From a virus (lineage: Duplodnaviria > Caudoviricetes), in the IMG/VR virus record IMGVR_UViG_3300020375_000001, positions 32,001 through 96,000 of that record: a stretch of 64,000 nucleotides of DNA. The stretch is one strand, 5' to 3'. Below the pieces are notes generated by a model that searched no databases, was not told where the DNA came from, and was given only the letters and a program-made list of their open reading frames with translations. A program made the translations under genes and the position numbers. This document shows positions 12,670 to 32,006 of the stretch, piece after piece; within the stretch, counting starts at the first letter, position 1, and each line of letters starts with the position of its first letter.

Positions 12670-13626
12670 TTAGATTATAAGTTGTTGACCGACATGTATC
12701 TTCGAGGGGTCAGCGATTTTATTCTTAGCAACCAAATGGTCCACCGTAGTACTTAGACGTTTAGCGATAGCGTACAGGGTATCTCCTTTGTTAATGGTGT
12801 ACACTGATTCACTGACGTTTAAAAACTCACCGTACTTTAGGTTGGTGGTACTATGGCCGTTAGCAAGCTGAATAATTCTTAGCCCGTTTACTCTCATGAA
12901 GTAACTTGTGGGTAAGTTGTACTTTTCAGCTATTTGCCAGATTGTATCGCCTTTCCGGACATAATATCGAGTACCGTTATAGTACCCGATAATGTCTTCA
13001 ACGTATTCAATGGTCTCTTCGAAGTTAGGTGTCATATACACCTTGCCGACTTTACGCAAACGGTTAGGTCCAGCATTGTAAGCAGCTAATACTATCCGTA
13101 GTGTATATTCGGTAAACTCCACCAGAGGCTTCTTGAACAGCCGTTGATGTAGGTGTTCCAAATAACGAGCAGCCGCATCCGCTGACTCGTAGTTATCCAT
13201 TACGTTCTCTACCTCTAATAAAGCAGCGGTCCGTGGACGGATTTGAAACATACCTTGTGCCCCTGCATGTGACACACGTGTATTGTCTTGGTGAGTCTCC
13301 TTAAAACTCATCCCCATCAATACTTTTCCAGGAAGACCGTAAACATAGCCAATGGCATCCAGTTCATCAATGGTTGGAATATCATCGGGTTGCTTACCAA
13401 AAGCGGCGGCATTTATCTTTACGGGTTCTTCTACTATTGGTTCTTCCTCCACAACGGGTAGAGGCTCGGTTTGTTTAACTACTACCTTAACCGTAGCGGG
13501 TGCGGTAGCAGCAACAATTTCTTTTTGTTCCGTCTCGTGTACGTAATCAGCCACCATCCACGTTGCCATTACAGCGATGATGATAGTTGCGCTAAATGCG
13601 TAACGAGTTAAATGTTTCTTCAACAT
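12670..13626 (-). CDS. Lytic transglycosylase (SLT) with N-terminal membrane anchor and two C-terminal LysM domains
   Basis: Catalytic ET (FKETH), GAQGMFQI, AAYNAG, ETIEYV; LysM YYVRKGDTIWQIA and YTINKGDTLYAIA; hydrophobic residues near N-terminus. Confidence 0.9.
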   Translation of the reverse strand: MLKKHLTRYAFSATIIIAVMATWMVADYVHETEQKEIVAATAPATVKVVVKQTEPLPVVEEEPIVEEPVKINAAAFGKQPDDIPTIDELDAIGYVYGLPGKVLMGMSFKETHQDNTRVSHAGAQGMFQIRPRTAALLEVENVMDNYESADAAARYLEHLHQRLFKKPLVEFTEYTLRIVLAAYNAGPNRLRKVGKVYMTPNFEETIEYVEDIIGYYNGTRYYVRKGDTIWQIAEKYNLPTSYFMRVNGLRIIQLANGHSTTNLKYGEFLNVSESVYTINKGDTLYAIAKRLSTTVDHLVAKNKIADPSKIHVGQQLII

Positions 13627-13630
13627 GGTT

Positions 13631-13864
13631 TTATCTCCGAAGGTATTTGTAGGAACCACTAACGTTACTCAGGATACCAACGATGTCACCGGATACCGAT
13701 ACCGACATTATAGGTCCTAGAGTTGTGGTATCAAACAGCTCCAAGACTGCATCTATCCCACCTTGGGTTAATGTATTACCTTTAAACTGGTCGGGGTTAA
13801 GCTCCGTGGTTTTAAAGCCACCTAGACCAGGTATTGCGGGGTTATGTATTTTAACCTTATTCAT
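13631..13864 (-). CDS. Hypothetical protein
   Basis: 77-aa ORF with GGAG upstream. Confidence 0.55.
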   Translation of the reverse strand: MNKVKIHNPAIPGLGGFKTTELNPDQFKGNTLTQGGIDAVLELFDTTTLGPIMSVSVSGDIVGILSNVSGSYKYLRR

Positions 13865-15063: not shown

Positions 15064-15744
15064 TTACTTATAGAAAGCGCGGATTTTCTGCTCAACGTCA
15101 GCAGTGAAGTTCTTAGAGAACGCACTGAAGTCGATTGCTTTAAGAGCAGAGGCACGGTTCTGCGGGTCAGCGGTTGAAGTCATCAAAACCACGATGTTTT
15201 CAAAACGCTGGCGAGCAGCAGGTGGAATACGCATTTCGTTCATGCCACGGAAAACCATGTTGTCAGTGAACGTACCAGAGTACTCGTTCATGATTTCCAG
15301 GGCTTGACCGTAAGCTTCAACAAACGCAGCGCCTTCCAAGTTGTTCAGGATGGCCATGATTGCCTGATAGAACTGCATCTGACTACGCAGGATTGTCGGG
15401 CGGTCATTTGGCGTGTTGGGAGCCATGCGCTTCGCATACTCAAGGATGGTTACACAGTTCAGGTTCATTACTTTACCTTCTTCTGTTTCAACCACAGCCG
15501 CATCACCTTCGTCAGCTTTACCGGCACCAGGCTGTTCAACAACAGTGTTCTCTTCAACGGCACTACCGGCAGCCAAGTCATCGTCTGATGGCGTGGTTTC
15601 AGCAGTTTGCGTTTCAGTGGTTTCTACTGTAGCTTCAACGGTTTGTTCTTCAGTAGACTGAACTTCAGTCTGTTGGGTTTCTTCAACCGCTTGAGTTTCA
15701 GTAGTCTGTGTCTCAGTCGGTTGTGGGTTACGACGTTTTCCCAT
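15064..15744 (-). CDS. Conserved hypothetical protein with acidic T/E/Q-rich disordered N-terminus
   Basis: Start moved to ATG 15744 (GGAG upstream); low-complexity N-terminal ~85 aa. Confidence 0.7.
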   Translation of the reverse strand: MGKRRNPQPTETQTTETQAVEETQQTEVQSTEEQTVEATVETTETQTAETTPSDDDLAAGSAVEENTVVEQPGAGKADEGDAAVVETEEGKVMNLNCVTILEYAKRMAPNTPNDRPTILRSQMQFYQAIMAILNNLEGAAFVEAYGQALEIMNEYSGTFTDNMVFRGMNEMRIPPAARQRFENIVVLMTSTADPQNRASALKAIDFSAFSKNFTADVEQKIRAFYK

Positions 15745-15761
15745 TTCTGGATTCTCCAAAA

Positions 15762-16148
15762 TTAAGGTTTGTGTTCGTCAAGCTCATCCATGGCGTTTTC
15801 AATAGAGGCACTTCTTTCTTTCGCAATCTCAAGGGCAACAGTCATAATGTGTTCACCAATGTCACGAGGAAGCTCTAAAAAATCCGTCAAAGACAAACCA
15901 AACGTTTTAGCGATGTTACGCTTACCAAACTTGCGTATGGCATCATACAGTAAGCTATTAGCATTAGTCTCTTCTGCAGGATTCATCTTCACGTAGTCTA
16001 AACCAGTTACACTACCTTCGTAATCCCTGATGCCGTAATCAGTATCGTAAGCTTCGACTTGCAAGATTTTTGCGAGCGGAGTGGATATCTTCTCTTGCGT
16101 CTCAAAGAGGGAGGCGAGCTCTCGCCCGTACTCCTTCTTATCATCCAA
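15762..16148 (-). CDS. Tail-assembly-chaperone C-terminal-like ORF (T4 gp51-like); probably expressed as a -1 frameshift extension
   Basis: FGLSLTDFLELP motif; TTG start without a clear RBS; frame stays open upstream through the T7 run at 16214-16220. Confidence 0.55.
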   Translation of the reverse strand: MDDKKEYGRELASLFETQEKISTPLAKILQVEAYDTDYGIRDYEGSVTGLDYVKMNPAEETNANSLLYDAIRKFGKRNIAKTFGLSLTDFLELPRDIGEHIMTVALEIAKERSASIENAMDELDEHKP

Positions 16149-16165
16149 TCCAAAACGACCGTCTA

Positions 16166-17620
16166 CTACAGGGGTCGTGTTACTGTCGCTTGGATTCTCT
16201 GCCCGCAGAGGGTAAAAAAAGTGGTTGTCATGTCAAGAGGAATAAACTCAGGGACAGCCTCACTTCTAACTATTTCATCCGGCTCGCCATCTTTACCTTC
16301 TTTCACTGAGTCACCGTAGCGCAAACCACACGCTGGGCATTCAGTGTTAGGGTAACCAATGATAGCAATGGTGGTGTCTTCAATGTATTCACCGATACTG
16401 TTCATGATAGAAGTACGAATAGTATCATCGGTGGAAAACTCAGAACACACTGTGTCAATGGTATCACGGTCTTCAATGATGTCCTGCTCATCACCGTCAG
16501 TAATGTACAGTTTACCAATCCAGTGTGAGTATTGACGCAATGTAGCGAGACGACCCTGGTCGGTGATGTACTGGTCACGCTCACTACCTTTTAAAGGAAT
16601 GCGGAACGCTTTGTCTACCATGTTAACAGTAGAGTCAACCCAGTTAAATCCAACCTGTTCATACTCAGCAATGCTCGGTACCGACATGTCCATGGTAAAG
16701 CCTTCGGCTCCTTTGATGGGGACATTGCGAGTTTGAAAGTCAAACTCTTCCTGATACGCTTTTAGCTCATCAGCCGTATGTGCACCATTGCGCTTGGACA
16801 TGTGCTTCATTTGCTTTTCACTTAGCTTGGACGTATCGATGACACGTAAGCGAGCAATATTGACACGACCTTCAGACACGTGATTACACTTGGTGATTTG
16901 TGCCACACAAGGTTCACGTAAATCGTAACCGTCAGGATACATTGCACAGACCATACCCCACACCATACTTGGTAGGTCGGTAGTCAGGATAATCTTCTTC
17001 AGTTCTTCAGGGTCTTTCGTCCCAAAGGTAGTATCGTACACATGAGCCAGAACAAAGTTCATCAGATAGCTCTGAATGTAGATAGTGGTATTTGAGAAAA
17101 CCATGCCGTTAGTGATACGGCCCAGGGTGATTTTCTCAGCAGCGATACGGCGATTCAGTTCAAGGATAGCAGCATTGCTTGGAGCCTTGATGGTAATCCA
17201 GCCACCGGTATGCCAAAGAGGGATAGGTACAATTGAACCTAAGCCCAGACGAGCTTTAACCTTGAGTACCGCAGCTTCGCCGCTAGTAACGCCACTGGAG
17301 TCACCATGACGTAAACGGTTGGGGGTGATAGGTTTACCATCATAGACCGGACGGTTGCTCCAATCTGCCTCAGGGTCACCTAGGCGACGACGGAAGATAT
17401 CGCCATTGGCAATATGCTCAATTCCATCGCTGATGGCCTGTAACCAGATAGCCGAGTTACTGTTACCACTTTGGATGTTTGGAAGTTTTTGGATGTCCTT
17501 TTGGAAATCCACCGCACTAACATTCAACAAGCTCAAAGCCTCTACATTTTTAGTAGCGGCTCCTTCGGGCTTGGGATGCAGTGTCTTTATCGGCGAGTTA
17601 CTATCGATATTTACTGCCAT
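16166..17620 (-). CDS. Probable tail/baseplate-hub assembly chaperone (T4 gp26-like; phiKZ gp77-like)
   Basis: 484 aa; WITIKAPS segment and C-terminal ECPACG; paired with a gp51-like ORF. Confidence 0.5.
   Translation of the reverse strand: MAVNIDSNSPIKTLHPKPEGAATKNVEALSLLNVSAVDFQKDIQKLPNIQSGNSNSAIWLQAISDGIEHIANGDIFRRRLGDPEADWSNRPVYDGKPITPNRLRHGDSSGVTSGEAAVLKVKARLGLGSIVPIPLWHTGGWITIKAPSNAAILELNRRIAAEKITLGRITNGMVFSNTTIYIQSYLMNFVLAHVYDTTFGTKDPEELKKIILTTDLPSMVWGMVCAMYPDGYDLREPCVAQITKCNHVSEGRVNIARLRVIDTSKLSEKQMKHMSKRNGAHTADELKAYQEEFDFQTRNVPIKGAEGFTMDMSVPSIAEYEQVGFNWVDSTVNMVDKAFRIPLKGSERDQYITDQGRLATLRQYSHWIGKLYITDGDEQDIIEDRDTIDTVCSEFSTDDTIRTSIMNSIGEYIEDTTIAIIGYPNTECPACGLRYGDSVKEGKDGEPDEIVRSEAVPEFIPLDMTTTFFTLCGQRIQATVTRPL
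16214..16220 (-). other. Candidate programmed -1 ribosomal frameshift heptamer U UUU UUU
   Basis: ACT TTT TTT ACC in frame 0; -1 frame is closed by TGA four codons upstream and open to 15762; CTCTG-cggg-CAGAG hairpin 3 nt downstream. Confidence 0.65.
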
Positions 17621-17626
17621 TGTCTA

Positions 17627-18073
17627 CTAATCTCCTGTGCCGCCACACAACTCAGTGATTTCTTCCAGGGTCGGGGCGGTAAGATTGATGAAACGGTCTT
17701 GCCAGTTTTGATAGCGCTGACCAACTTTTACGGTGATGTCCATTACGGTAAGCTCATCCGTGGTGTGTGTAATCTCACGGATGTTTGCATCGCAGGACGC
17801 TACCAGATTATCCAGCTCAATTTTAAGAACCTTTAAATCGTTAGCTAAGGTATTAGCCAGGGCACCTACCTTTGCCTCATCCAGTTGGACGTCTGGATTA
17901 TCTTTAGCTGCTTTAATAAGCACACTAATGTTGGCAGAACTGGCAATTAACTGTAAACAAGCAGCACGAATACCCGCTGCTTCATTAAGGAACTGGTCAC
18001 GACGAGATACACCCGGTGCTATACCTTGCGTCGCTTTTTTACCGTTCTTTCTTTTATTGTTGGATTCGGGCAT
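17627..18073 (-). CDS. Hypothetical helical protein
   Basis: 148 aa, basic N-terminus, AGGAG upstream. Confidence 0.7.
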   Translation of the reverse strand: MPESNNKRKNGKKATQGIAPGVSRRDQFLNEAAGIRAACLQLIASSANISVLIKAAKDNPDVQLDEAKVGALANTLANDLKVLKIELDNLVASCDANIREITHTTDELTVMDITVKVGQRYQNWQDRFINLTAPTLEEITELCGGTGD

Positions 18074-23922: not shown

Positions 23923-24687
23923 TCAGTTTATGTAAAACTCACCACGTATTTCCATTTTGGAGTTAAAAGAGACATTATACCTCTCCACTCTGTTTTTCAA
24001 GTAGGTTGGTAGGTTAACGAACGATAACAAATCCAATAACGCTATCGGGGCGTTACTGGGTAATCGTCCTGTCTCTCGCATCACTGCTAACAACTCTCTA
24101 TTATTGTCTAGTGTGCTTGGTGCATCCTCCAGGTTATTGATTAGTCTACCCACCATGTCAGCCCGTTCCGCTAAGGGAACCCGATTCTGGGCGGCTACTA
24201 TGCCAGCCATCCTCATGTAAGCCTCTAGCCAATTCGTTTGACCCTTAAAGTAATCAGGTTTCTGACCACTAGTAAGCAATGCTAGGTAGTACTCCATTGA
24301 TTCCAAAACATATTGTGTCTTGAACGTCTCGCAGTTCATCGTCTGTTGTATTCTTAATAACAACTCACTACGATACGCCTGCACCAGAGCAGGATAAGAC
24401 CGTAGCTCTTGCGGCACGGTAAAATACTCTGCTGTGTACAGACTCACAGGTAACTCAGACATGGGCATTACACCCGTTACGTCTTTCGTTTGACTTACGT
24501 TAGCGACAACTTCTTTGGTAGACGGTGTTGGGGAAACATCCGTCAATTGGTCGTCTTGGTTTTTAGATTCTTCAGCAACATCTAAACCGCTATTACGTAA
24601 TGTAGCGCAGGTAGCGGCGAAACTTAACGCCGCGTTGCCGAGAAATTTTAAAATCCGATTAGATACGAATTTTAGCTTTTCCCTCAT
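23923..24687 (-). CDS. Hypothetical protein
   Basis: 254 aa, overlaps the helicase stop. Confidence 0.65.
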   Translation of the reverse strand: MREKLKFVSNRILKFLGNAALSFAATCATLRNSGLDVAEESKNQDDQLTDVSPTPSTKEVVANVSQTKDVTGVMPMSELPVSLYTAEYFTVPQELRSYPALVQAYRSELLLRIQQTMNCETFKTQYVLESMEYYLALLTSGQKPDYFKGQTNWLEAYMRMAGIVAAQNRVPLAERADMVGRLINNLEDAPSTLDNNRELLAVMRETGRLPSNAPIALLDLLSFVNLPTYLKNRVERYNVSFNSKMEIRGEFYIN

Positions 24688-27239
24688 TTATTTGGTCTCC
24701 CTATAACGAAGGTTGAGTTCAGTTCACCTATGCTCTTAACCCTTGGGCGTAGAAGCTTTTTCTTCTTCTCATGGTATTCCATGTGCTTAGGTAAGTTACG
24801 AGCTAAGATGTACATGAAATCTGGCTCAACATCAGGCCAATCTTTCAAACGACGTAAACGACCCACAATCTGGATATTTGCCTGACTGGAGTTAATGTTT
24901 GTTGTCATTAAGCTATAACGTAACCCTGGAATGTCTACACCAGTCCCCGCTGACAAAGCAGTGGATGCCGATATATCCGATTCCATTAACACCTCGTAGT
25001 CATCCTCTGATATATAACGAGCTACTTCTAGTGTTGGATTCCGTTTAGCAAGATGGTCCGCTATCTTCCCACACATTTCCTTGGTCGCCGCAAACACGAG
25101 ACACTTCTGACCATCATCCCTACGTTTGACATACCACTCGTACACCAACGAATCTATCATCGCTAAGTACTGTGCTAAGTAAAGAGGTCTCTTAATAAGA
25201 CTTTCTTCAAACAGCGTGTGGCTATACATCTTTTGTTGATTGATGTGGCGTATCTTCTCCGGTTCCCATAGTTCGTACAGCAATGCTTTAACGCGAATGT
25301 AACGGTCAAAATCTCCAGGCGTAAAACGCATTCTTTCTGGCCATTGTATTTGCAACATTCTGTTACGAAACGGTGAGTCCGTTGTGATTGTAGCAGACAA
25401 GAAAATTGTCTTAGGAATATGAGCGTACAAATCCATCTTAAAGATTTGGTGCTGGTTCTCGTGGGCTTCGTCAACAACTCGTAGACCTACACCTAACACT
25501 TTCCACAAATTCCAGGGCTTAATAGGATAACCTCTGAGTTTACCCGCCTCGTAGTCTTTATAGAATCGCGCCAGTGTCGTTGTTGAAGCGATGATGGCCT
25601 TGTAATCGAATTCGCCCGCCAAAGCTAGATTGATTGCACTTAACAAAGCAGCACTGCCTCGTATTACACAAATCTCTTTCTTCTTTAGGCCTAAACAATC
25701 TTCCAGGTCACCTATCCACTTTTCGATGTACTTACCACCCATCTGAAAACAAGTGAGTACACCTAATGTTTCTGCAGCCTTTTGACTACAGAACGTATTA
25801 TGGGTTACGATAAAATCATCCGTAACGTATAGCTTGTCGTCATGGGCTATCGAGATACACTGTGCTTCCTTTTCACCAACGTACTCTATACTTGTTAATG
25901 CAAGTTTAAAGTTCTTACTGTACTGATTAGATTCAGACAGTTTGGCGATATGGCGTGGCAACCTAAATAACTCAGTAGGATTAGCCGCACGTAAATGTAC
26001 ACGATATGCTGTCTTCCCAACCCTTTGTTCACCGCGATAGGTGTACTTAGGTACCTTACTAGTCAACTTGGCATGATGACCTAAGCTTCGAGCAAGGTAT
26101 TGGAATTGTTGTGCCAGCAACAGACTAGACGTAGAGAAGCTTGAACTTTTGTTCTCACTTACTGTTCCATCCGTGTCCATTAACCCTTGTAACAAACTTC
26201 TACGCTGATAAGTCGAGCCATCCAAGTATTCCTCAGGAATAAACTTTTCATGACTTAACTTTCCACGTAAACCCATCTCTTCCAAAATGGTCAACCAAGG
26301 ATTAGCCAAGATAGACTTGTCTTCCCTGATGATGTTATAATCAACCCCACCCGCTTGAGATAGAGTCATTCCAGCTGGAAGGTTTTTATGCAGTGCTTCT
26401 AATAGCTCCTTATCCGGTGTGCTAAATTTTAGAACCTGATTACCAACATGACCATCGCCTAATATTAAACCCAAGACGTAAGGGTCAAGTGGTAACGCTT
26501 TCCCCTCATTCTTTTCGGACTCGGGTAAGTCAATGTAATACCTCGCGTTAGGGTTAGATTTACGATGCTCTAGAATTTCTCCTAGTTGCTTCACCGTCCA
26601 ACCTTGGTCGGGGTTATACACTCTCCACAAATGTTCTTTGCAACACTCCGTAGTACGGCCATCGGAAAATGTCAGTTTATAAATTGCCTTTTTACCCTGA
26701 GGGTGTATTGCGGTAACTTTAGTAGTTGAACCGTCCTTAGCAATTACATCCTGACCTACAGCCATGTCACCCATGGTTAGCCAACCACCGGGAACTTTAA
26801 TAGCTGCATCCAAAGGCTGTGCCTTCCCGCCGCCAGTCGCAAGGGTAACCACCTTTGATTCGCCTGGGTCTTCCATATACTGGATTACCCTAGGTTGGTC
26901 ATCACGTGGTACCCAATGGTCTGGAATGTTGTAATCGACTTCAGTTGGCGTATACATACGCTTCACCGTTATCTCAACAAGGCTCGGTGGGATGTTAGCA
27001 TTTTTCAGCATGTCGAGAAATTCTTCATACTGGTTAATGTGAAAACGGTAGTAGGTACGCTCAGCATTAGACGCCGCGTATACCTTAGCCATCTTCTTGT
27101 GGAACTTACCTCTCGCGTAATGCCCCGTCCACTCAACGAGCGGACGGAGAAAGTTTTGAATGAGAGGCCTTAAACGTGGAGATACCTTAGTCACCGAAAA
27201 GTGATGACTGTAGACATCTATTTTACAATAATCGCTCAA
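24684..27239 (-). CDS. SF2 (DExH) helicase, intein-containing (phiKZ gp75-like)
   Basis: Walker A ATGGGK|T split by the intein; VVDEAH, LSAT, QIVGRLRR; 509 aa after splicing. Confidence 0.9.
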   Translation of the reverse strand: MSDYCKIDVYSHHFSVTKVSPRLRPLIQNFLRPLVEWTGHYARGKFHKKMAKVYAASNAERTYYRFHINQYEEFLDMLKNANIPPSLVEITVKRMYTPTEVDYNIPDHWVPRDDQPRVIQYMEDPGESKVVTLATGGGKAQPLDAAIKVPGGWLTMGDMAVGQDVIAKDGSTTKVTAIHPQGKKAIYKLTFSDGRTTECCKEHLWRVYNPDQGWTVKQLGEILEHRKSNPNARYYIDLPESEKNEGKALPLDPYVLGLILGDGHVGNQVLKFSTPDKELLEALHKNLPAGMTLSQAGGVDYNIIREDKSILANPWLTILEEMGLRGKLSHEKFIPEEYLDGSTYQRRSLLQGLMDTDGTVSENKSSSFSTSSLLLAQQFQYLARSLGHHAKLTSKVPKYTYRGEQRVGKTAYRVHLRAANPTELFRLPRHIAKLSESNQYSKNFKLALTSIEYVGEKEAQCISIAHDDKLYVTDDFIVTHNTFCSQKAAETLGVLTCFQMGGKYIEKWIGDLEDCLGLKKKEICVIRGSAALLSAINLALAGEFDYKAIIASTTTLARFYKDYEAGKLRGYPIKPWNLWKVLGVGLRVVDEAHENQHQIFKMDLYAHIPKTIFLSATITTDSPFRNRMLQIQWPERMRFTPGDFDRYIRVKALLYELWEPEKIRHINQQKMYSHTLFEESLIKRPLYLAQYLAMIDSLVYEWYVKRRDDGQKCLVFAATKEMCGKIADHLAKRNPTLEVARYISEDDYEVLMESDISASTALSAGTGVDIPGLRYSLMTTNINSSQANIQIVGRLRRLKDWPDVEPDFMYILARNLPKHMEYHEKKKKLLRPRVKSIGELNSTFVIGRPNK
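25797..26822 (-). mobile_element. Class-3 intein with LAGLIDADG homing endonuclease (342 aa)
   Basis: Starts AQPLDA (Ala1), EHLW, AQCISI, ends IVTHN before Thr+1; motifs YVLGLILGDG and LLQGLMDTDG. Confidence 0.92.
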
Positions 27240-31991: not shown

Positions 31992-32006
31992 AATATTAGT
32001 TATTAC

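Follow-up and report, generated by a model that had tools for sequence, protein, structure and literature searches.

A probable programmed -1 ribosomal frameshift in the phiKZ gp077 gene family of nucleus-forming jumbo phages

Reading frames and slippery heptamer at the locus

The DNA analysed here, called the window throughout, is a stretch of 64,000 nucleotides (nt), positions 32,001 to 96,000 of the IMG/VR virus record IMGVR_UViG_3300020375_000001 (Caudoviricetes). Its minus strand carries a gene for a protein of 484 amino acids (aa), P0001, whose homologs according to record notes and our searches are phiKZ gp077, PhiPA3 gp074, 201phi2-1 gp136, and Goslar gp081. The end of this gene overlaps a second open reading frame (ORF), P0002, which lies in the -1 frame and has homologs in PhiPA3 gp073, 201phi2-1 gp135, phiKZ gp076.4 (annotated in part), and Goslar gp082. 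The features of the junction, in window positions, are the following.

16166 to 17620, minus strand: zero-frame ORF of 484 aa, stop included in the coordinates (P0001), the predicted short product; match to phrog_4585 at an expect value (E) of 4e-108; AlphaFold2 model
16214 to 16220, minus strand: slippery heptamer T_TTT_TTT, phased as X_XXY_YYZ and spanning codons Thr467 (ACT)-Phe468-Phe469; T_TTT_TTN in 32/37 clusters of relatives
15762 to 16214, minus strand: extension in the -1 frame, 150 codons and a stop (P0002); match to phrog_12109 over residues 11-147, and profile alignment
16166 to 16213, minus strand: overlap read in both frames, the zero frame giving the conserved C-terminal helix tail TLCGQRIQATVTRPL and its stop, the -1 frame a poorly ordered linker YPLRAENPSDSNTTPV
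16146 to 16148, minus strand: TTG, the sole canonical start in the 5' part of the -1 ORF, without a Shine-Dalgarno sequence, placed after the near-invariant Phe of a conserved ..P.FG motif
17631 to 17636, minus strand: Shine-Dalgarno sequence AGGAGA, 10 nt 5' of the ATG of the 484-aa ORF, an example of a genuine ribosome-binding site in this phage

Split into the codons of the 484-aa ORF, the minus-strand sequence is GAC ATG ACA ACC ACT TTT TTT ACC CTC TGC GGG CAG AGA, which places a U UUU UUU heptamer (16220-16214) in the X_XXY_YYZ phase of the upstream frame, the form of a -1 site. The -1 frame is closed by a TGA at 16235-16233, four codons 5' of the heptamer, and is then open from 16214 through 150 codons to the stop at 15764-15762, with no ATG or GTG ahead of the TTG at 16148. 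Ribosome-binding sites are present nearby (AGGAGA for the 484-aa ORF and GGAG for the next gene); none precedes this TTG. The predicted fusion has 469+150 = 619 aa and the junction ...TTTFF-YPLRAENPSD. The heptamer and its phase, the closed and then open -1 frame, the lone TTG lacking a clear ribosome-binding site, and the length and junction of the fusion had all been described in an earlier reading of this DNA (the initial annotation below), and we found them as described. The match of P0002 to phrog_12109 starts at residue 11, upstream of the TTG, and the alignment of downstream ORFs likewise covers residues ahead of it; the -1 frame encodes a conserved polypeptide that lacks a conserved start codon of its own. 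The TTG at 16148 is probably unused as a start.

We interpret the locus as a programmed -1 ribosomal frameshift in the gp077 family, a core gene family of nucleus-forming jumbo phages, and give this reading a probability of roughly 0.8. Most ribosomes would stay in frame and terminate at the UAG of the 484-aa ORF. A smaller share would stall at U_UUU_UUU, both UUU codons being occupied by tRNA-Phe, and move back by one base, both tRNAs then pairing again with UUU; the slipped ribosomes would read UAC CCU CUG and go on, for 150 further codons in all. The two products would share residues 1-469. The short form of 484 aa would end in the conserved C-terminal helix, and the long form of 619 aa would have, in place of this helix, a flexible linker followed by about 120 residues that form a conserved helical domain. 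That the slip occurs, that it is ribosomal, and how frequent it is, we infer from sequence comparison. Runs of T7 occur 23 times in the window against 24 expected, and a single genome is for that reason only suggestive; the observation exceeds chance because the site is conserved in relatives.

Conservation of the junction in relatives and model phages

The sample comprised 85 loci with 79 distinct junctions, which group into 37 clusters sharing less than 50% protein identity; four records were read at the junction, 80 further loci came from viral contigs, and all 85 were scored by script. In tblastn searches against phage records, the homology of P0002 begins in the -1 frame and overlaps the end of the upstream gene, a layout seen in jumbo phages of Xanthomonas, Erwinia, Burkholderia, Klebsiella/Serratia, and Bacillus. 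The main form of the site per cluster is T_TTT_TTN in 32 of the 37, N_TTT_TTN in three, and degenerate in two, and this conservation at the nucleotide level goes beyond coding need. In the rest of the gene an average of 38% of the Phe codons are TTT, a codon that is absent or rare in GC-rich members (0 TTT versus 19 TTC in the gene of locus L010). Of the 79 junctions, 76 have TTT as the first Phe codon of the site (30 expected), and 68 have T as the last base of the codon before it (22 expected); the residue specified by that preceding codon varies (V, T, L, I, S, A, N, G, or H). In the position logo, X holds about 1.4 bits, and most neighbouring third-codon positions hold less than 0.3 bits. 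The initial annotation had proposed that a programmed -1 frameshift joins the two ORFs and had suggested aligning homologous junctions as a check; the in-phase site kept in 35 of the 37 clusters and the signature at synonymous positions both support this proposal.

Past the site the -1 frame is open for 150-181 codons in 85/85 loci. The first ATG, GTG, or TTG after the site stands at +2 to +151 codons, often beyond the conserved motifs (+151 of 154 in L035, +136 of 161 in L054, and +87 of 164 in AgentSmith), and six loci carry an earlier start codon upstream of the site. The zero-frame tail past the site is conserved too (TLLxQ[RK]IxxIxxR), with its stop 33-57 nt away in nearly all loci. A profile search with the downstream domain returned 1730 cluster representatives, the best 150 of which are all 97-186 aa long and start at profile positions 1 to 56; such scattered starts are explained by the behaviour of gene callers on an ORF without a real start. 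None of these best 150 is an in-frame fusion in a single ORF. Atlas clusters of 618/619 aa probably represent homologs that are longer at the N-terminus.

One clade departs from this pattern. Three of its loci (L067, L070, and L071) have a decayed site, reading TCG GTT TTT followed by TCC, ATC, or ACC, and carry an ATG inside the conserved downstream motif (HP-M-FG). Two members of the same clade with an intact T_TTT_TTC (L072 and L075) have L or N at the x of HP-x-FG. The three loci seem to have given up frameshifting in favour of independent initiation, and the coincidence of slip-site loss with start-codon gain lends support to the frameshift reading. In two other loci (L029 and L034) the site reads ACT TTT ATT ATC (T_TTT_ATT), and the first -1 frame start is 35-39 codons on, past the FG motif.

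The same two-frame layout is present in the isolates phiKZ, PhiPA3, Goslar, LucasX, FLC9, and AgentSmith. The 3' end of phiKZ gp077 reads ACT TTT TTT ACT, and its -1 frame runs for 165 codons into gp076.4; Goslar gp081 reads CTT TTT TTT ACC, with a -1 frame of 157 codons into a truncated gp082, the first 48 of which precede any start codon. In the phiKZ genome (NC_004629, minus strand; L088:2943-3446), PHIKZ076.4 is annotated as an ORF of 80 aa but is in fact the C-terminal half of the 165-codon -1 extension of PHIKZ077, and the conserved HILHPNFG motif with about 85 codons lies upstream of its annotated ATG. None of the annotated public records that we examined joins the two ORFs; each lists two genes, a "hypothetical protein" and a truncated small ORF. 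The initial annotation was not aware of any description of the frameshift for phiKZ-like phages, which agrees with our searches, in which we found no description of it for the gp077 family in the literature or in those records. The name "gp77" in the Goslar and PCH45 papers denotes other proteins.

Proteomic data are available for Goslar. In virions purified on caesium chloride (CsCl), gp081 was detected with 24 peptides, 49% coverage, and about 22 copies per virion (15-35), and gp082 with 1 peptide, 11% coverage, and about 3 copies per virion (2-5) (Table S4, doi 10.64898/2026.04.21.720040). The area/mass ratio of gp082 to gp081 derived from these data is 0.14, or about 1/7. The gp077 family is virion-associated, and the gp082 level agrees weakly with a minor long isoform, a comparison that rests on one peptide. 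In the Goslar model from electron cryomicroscopy (cryo-EM), gp081 is absent (doi 10.64898/2026.04.21.720040). The Churi homolog, gp256, is listed among proteins seen early in infection (PMC11849849), which a virion-borne protein could explain.

Counter-evidence and alternative explanations

Several observations weigh against frameshifting. The site is degenerate in 5/79 junctions, which means that the device can be lost, and the Phe-Phe pair is invariant at the protein level, so that coding accounts for some of the T run. In about half of the junctions the run is T8-T9, a length on which an RNA polymerase could slip as well, and in three loci (L005, L007, and L084) an ATG follows two codons past the site. 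No conserved hairpin or pseudoknot was found downstream: over the 60 nt past the site the mean z is -0.75, and their folding is not stronger than that of a control segment from within the gene. An upstream element resembling a Shine-Dalgarno sequence was not evident in the window sequence or the position logo, although no scan aimed at it was made. Stimulatory elements, such as a hairpin or pseudoknot 5-9 nt downstream, are common at -1 sites but not obligatory. The Goslar gp082 signal is a single peptide that could come from an independently made small protein, and a trans-frame peptide or a second protein band has not been seen so far.

The window itself does contain a potential stem close to the site.

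16197 to 16210, minus strand: hairpin CUCUG-CGGG-CAGAG, 3 nt past the heptamer, in the minimum-energy fold; weak and too close to the site

The initial annotation had pointed to this hairpin, and it is present in the sequence; the fold that contains it has a non-significant z of -1.4. None of the three closest relatives (L005, L006, and L007) keeps the stem intact, and no consensus structure emerged, which leaves the implied role as a stimulator unsupported. The hairpin is probably not a stimulator.

The same 619-aa fusion would result from transcriptional slippage, in which the phage or host RNA polymerase stutters on T7-T9 and adds one U in some transcripts. A homopolymer of 7-9 T is found in about 85% of the junctions, T at position -1 extends the run to T8 in about half, these phages transcribe with unusual multisubunit RNA polymerases of their own, and, as described above, we found no conserved RNA structure of the type that usually enhances ribosomal frameshifting. 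Selection, however, acts on the X position of an in-phase heptamer and not on the length of the run. The Z position is C in 16/79 junctions, and TTG is found in 3 and TTA in 1, all of which shorten the run and still give good ribosomal heptamers. Runs of six T are confined to the two phases compatible with a heptamer, except at the degenerate junction L067. Known bacterial polymerases slip poorly on runs of 6-7 T. The contigs from RNA libraries carry T7 only, although contigs cannot reveal minor variants. We consider transcriptional slippage unlikely, but it is the strongest of the alternatives.

The second alternative is that of two ordinary genes, the downstream ORF starting on its own (at the TTG at 16148, at a non-canonical codon such as the CTG at 16208-16206, or by termination-reinitiation) and the T run merely coding for Phe-Phe. 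It would fit with Phe468 and Phe469 being invariant or nearly so, with the two genes annotated in all public records examined, with the few relatives that have an ATG just past the site or within the conserved motif, and with the lack of an in-frame single-ORF fusion among the best 150 of the 1730 representatives. It leaves unexplained, however, the use of TTT at both Phe codons in genomes that otherwise have TTC only, and likewise the preceding T. Many relatives have no start codon for 50-150 codons of a conserved ORF of 150-180 codons, and in the window a conserved N-terminal motif lies upstream of a TTG that has no Shine-Dalgarno sequence. Independent initiation of the downstream ORF fits the data poorly and is very unlikely.

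In two of the loci with an ATG next to the site (L005:3913-3921 and L007:3904-3912), a synonymous Leu codon (CTA then TGC) makes the -1 frame ATG two codons past the site. Gene callers predict a full-length downstream ORF in these loci because of this ATG, which is without a ribosome-binding site since the sequence ahead of it is the T run itself.

A sequencing or assembly error in the homopolymer (the true gene being a single 619-aa ORF), or a decaying gene or pseudogene, is almost certainly not the explanation: homopolymers are error-prone and both ORFs are contiguous in the -1 frame, but the layout recurs in all 85 loci, isolate genomes included, the zero-frame tail past the site is itself conserved, and the stretch is carried by contigs of 12 DNA runs and 4 RNA-library runs, the four RNA-library contigs showing T7 with no difference. 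The T7 being identical in contigs of independent DNA and RNA runs argues against an assembly error, which the comparative data effectively refute. Window positions 15700-17700 have a share of sampled words of 1.00 in contigs that stem from four studies with 12 metagenome DNA runs, nine of these runs being labelled marine, and of 0.99-1.00 in four marine metatranscriptome runs (2014-2019), in which DNA carry-over is possible. Its presence in multiple runs indicates that the phage, which is uncultured, is recurrent in its habitat.

Protein models, related systems, and genomic setting

The AlphaFold2 model of P0001 has a predicted local distance difference test score (pLDDT) of 86 and a predicted template modelling score (pTM) of 0.87, and that of P0002 a pLDDT of 84. 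The first 30 residues of P0002 have no secondary structure in the model (pLDDT 51-74). F468-F469 are placed at the start of a C-terminal helix, residues 464-481, so that a slip at this point would have the long form exchange the helix for a linker of about 30 residues and a helical domain. Foldseek gave no match in the PDB for either model, and a wide fold search with VIA-align returned matches of a generic helical kind only, none with Z above 6.2.

Searched against BFVD with Foldseek, P0001 matched gp26/gp51-type models of about 250 aa (E 4e-5 to 1e-3; template modelling score, TM, 0.43-0.58 on the target), many of them named baseplate hub assembly protein, subunit, or chaperone. In the Atlas, the shape search placed P0001 at TM 0.52 to a cluster with 14% PF12322, and the feature search found PF12322 in 86/100 of the nearest named clusters (score 0.91, 202/256 features). 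T4 gp26 and gp51 both match PF12322 strongly. In Pfam searches this family was matched in 2/50 relatives of P0001 (best E 5e-5), with no match for P0001 at E<=1 and none in the window's own genome. Profile-profile comparisons with hhalign of the jumbo phage upstream, downstream, and fused alignments against gp26, gp51, and the two combined gave nothing significant (probability 20% or less); one low-confidence alignment placed the CPxCG...FFTL of P0001 on the C-terminus of gp26. Residues 93-148 of P0002 matched the shape of a Gp51_C cluster (target TM 0.72 over 56 residues, root mean square deviation 1.9), but in hhalign P0002 scored below the column-shuffled null against Gp51_C and Atlas features gave no support. 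The resemblance to T4 gp26/gp51 proposed in the initial annotation is thus borne out by Foldseek, by Atlas shape and features, and by PF12322 in two relatives, and finds no significant backing in the profile-profile comparisons. These results partly support the view that P0001 is a distant structural relative of T4 gp26 and gp51.

The parallel with T4 includes sequence motifs. Paired Cys motifs and a C-terminal ..CPxCG...FFxLL are shared, and gp26 ends exactly there (...CPECG...FFELL). The short T4 paralog is gp26, and the long one, gp51, has an extra C-terminal domain (PF28602, Gp51_C), a pairing that resembles the short and long isoforms proposed here. P0001 is, however, twice the length of gp26 or gp51, and T4 uses two genes and an internal in-frame start (26') with no frameshift. 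In our copy of T4 gene 26 (L089:3803-4429) a second internal in-frame product, 26', is annotated and covers the last 95 codons. The T4 branch likewise makes two isoforms from one gene, by another route.

The mechanism itself is classical, its nearest analogues being the frameshifts of tail assembly chaperone (TAC) genes and T7 10A/10B. TAC frameshifts were reportedly treated by Levin, Hendrix and Casjens in 1993 and by Xu, Hendrix and Duda in 2004. In lambda G/GT, P2 E/E+E', and the Mu-type TAC genes, as predicted for the jumbo phage genes, the -1 slip takes place on a canonical heptamer that lies a few codons ahead of the stop of a morphogenesis-related gene (P2 E/E+E' slips on T_TTT_TTG); the abundant short product and the rarer one with a C-terminal extension have a common N-terminal body, and the layout outlasts sequence divergence. 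At the level of sequence and conservation, the window likewise appears to have a -1 frameshift near the 3' end of a gene that would give an extended minor form. The differences from TAC genes are nevertheless several: the jumbo phage genes do not lie between the tube and tape-measure genes; the proteins, of 484 and 619 aa, are 3-4 times larger than the TAC forms of about 100-150 and 250-300 aa; no TAC family in Pfam and no fold in the PDB was matched by the window proteins; and Goslar gp081 is in virions at about 22 copies, contradicting a chaperone of the lambda type, as lambda G and GT are absent from mature virions. One weak Atlas row had Phage_TAC_4 in 15% of a cluster, at TM 0.19 on the query. 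The lambda G/GT-style chaperone pair that the initial annotation had proposed is not supported, given these differences in gene context, size, family matches, and virion presence. A further example of a TAC-type frameshift is gp181/182 of Phage G (PMC8570332).

T7 10A/10B shares with the arrangement predicted for the gp077 family a -1 slip near the end of the gene for a virion protein, with a minor C-terminally extended isoform joining the major one. In T7, the minor product is incorporated beside the major one and 10B is dispensable; 10A is the major capsid protein and the slippery sequence is another one. Unlike that of T7 10B, the extension in the jumbo phages is predicted to fold into a conserved domain, which at least 37 divergent clusters retain.

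Given the distant structural resemblance to gp26/gp51 and the virion association in Goslar, the two isoforms may act in building or arming a T4-like hub and tail end, at a ratio that the slip would set. The hub and spike of Chimalliviridae closely resemble those of T4 (doi 10.64898/2026.04.21.720040), which makes a gp26/gp51-like hub factor plausible. With limited support, the comparison suggests a gp26-like identity for the short isoform and a gp51-like one for the long isoform. A more specific idea, tentative and in our view rather doubtful, is that one frameshifted gene supplies both members of the paralogous hub-assembly pair of T4, the frequency of the slip setting the stoichiometry of a virion component of about 20 copies. 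If so, the short gp26-like form would end just past FF-x-LL and the long gp51-like form would add a C-terminal domain; recoding and gene duplication would then be alternative evolutionary routes to one short/long pair.

The neighbours of the gene in the window are a DNA polymerase, a protein with a transglycosylase domain, gp078-like and gp079-like proteins, the beta subunit of the virion RNA polymerase, and an intein-bearing helicase, with the same synteny in phiKZ and PhiPA3. The ORF directly downstream (15064-15759, minus strand; phrog_18957) has an acidic N-terminal third that is T/E/Q-rich and of low complexity; its real start is probably the ATG at 15744, with GGAG ahead of it, and not the listed TTG at 15759. 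The 329-aa ORF at 12670-13659 (minus strand) has matches of the lytic transglycosylase/endolysin and LysM-like types (phrog_669, 291, 4602, and 1274) and could be an endolysin or a virion-associated lysin. In the 851-aa helicase ORF (24684-27239, minus strand), helicase and DnaC-like matches are split by an insert of about 300 residues; PHROGs matches of the insert to intein-bearing terminase families and to an endonuclease family agree with an intein at 25797-26822.

The gp077 family is a core gene of phiKZ-like jumbo phages (Chimalliviridae) and reaches the Bacillus relatives of the AR9/PBS1 type, such as AgentSmith. If a programmed -1 frameshift joins its two frames, it would provide a natural U_UUU_UUN signal without an obvious RNA stimulator, kept in phages of hosts from Pseudomonas to Bacillus. 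As the records split the gene, an isoform of about 620-730 residues would be missing from annotations, proteomics databases, structure-prediction sets, and cryo-EM lists. In Goslar, where the roughly 22 copies of gp081 are unplaced in the map, knowing the longer isoform could help to assign the remaining density.

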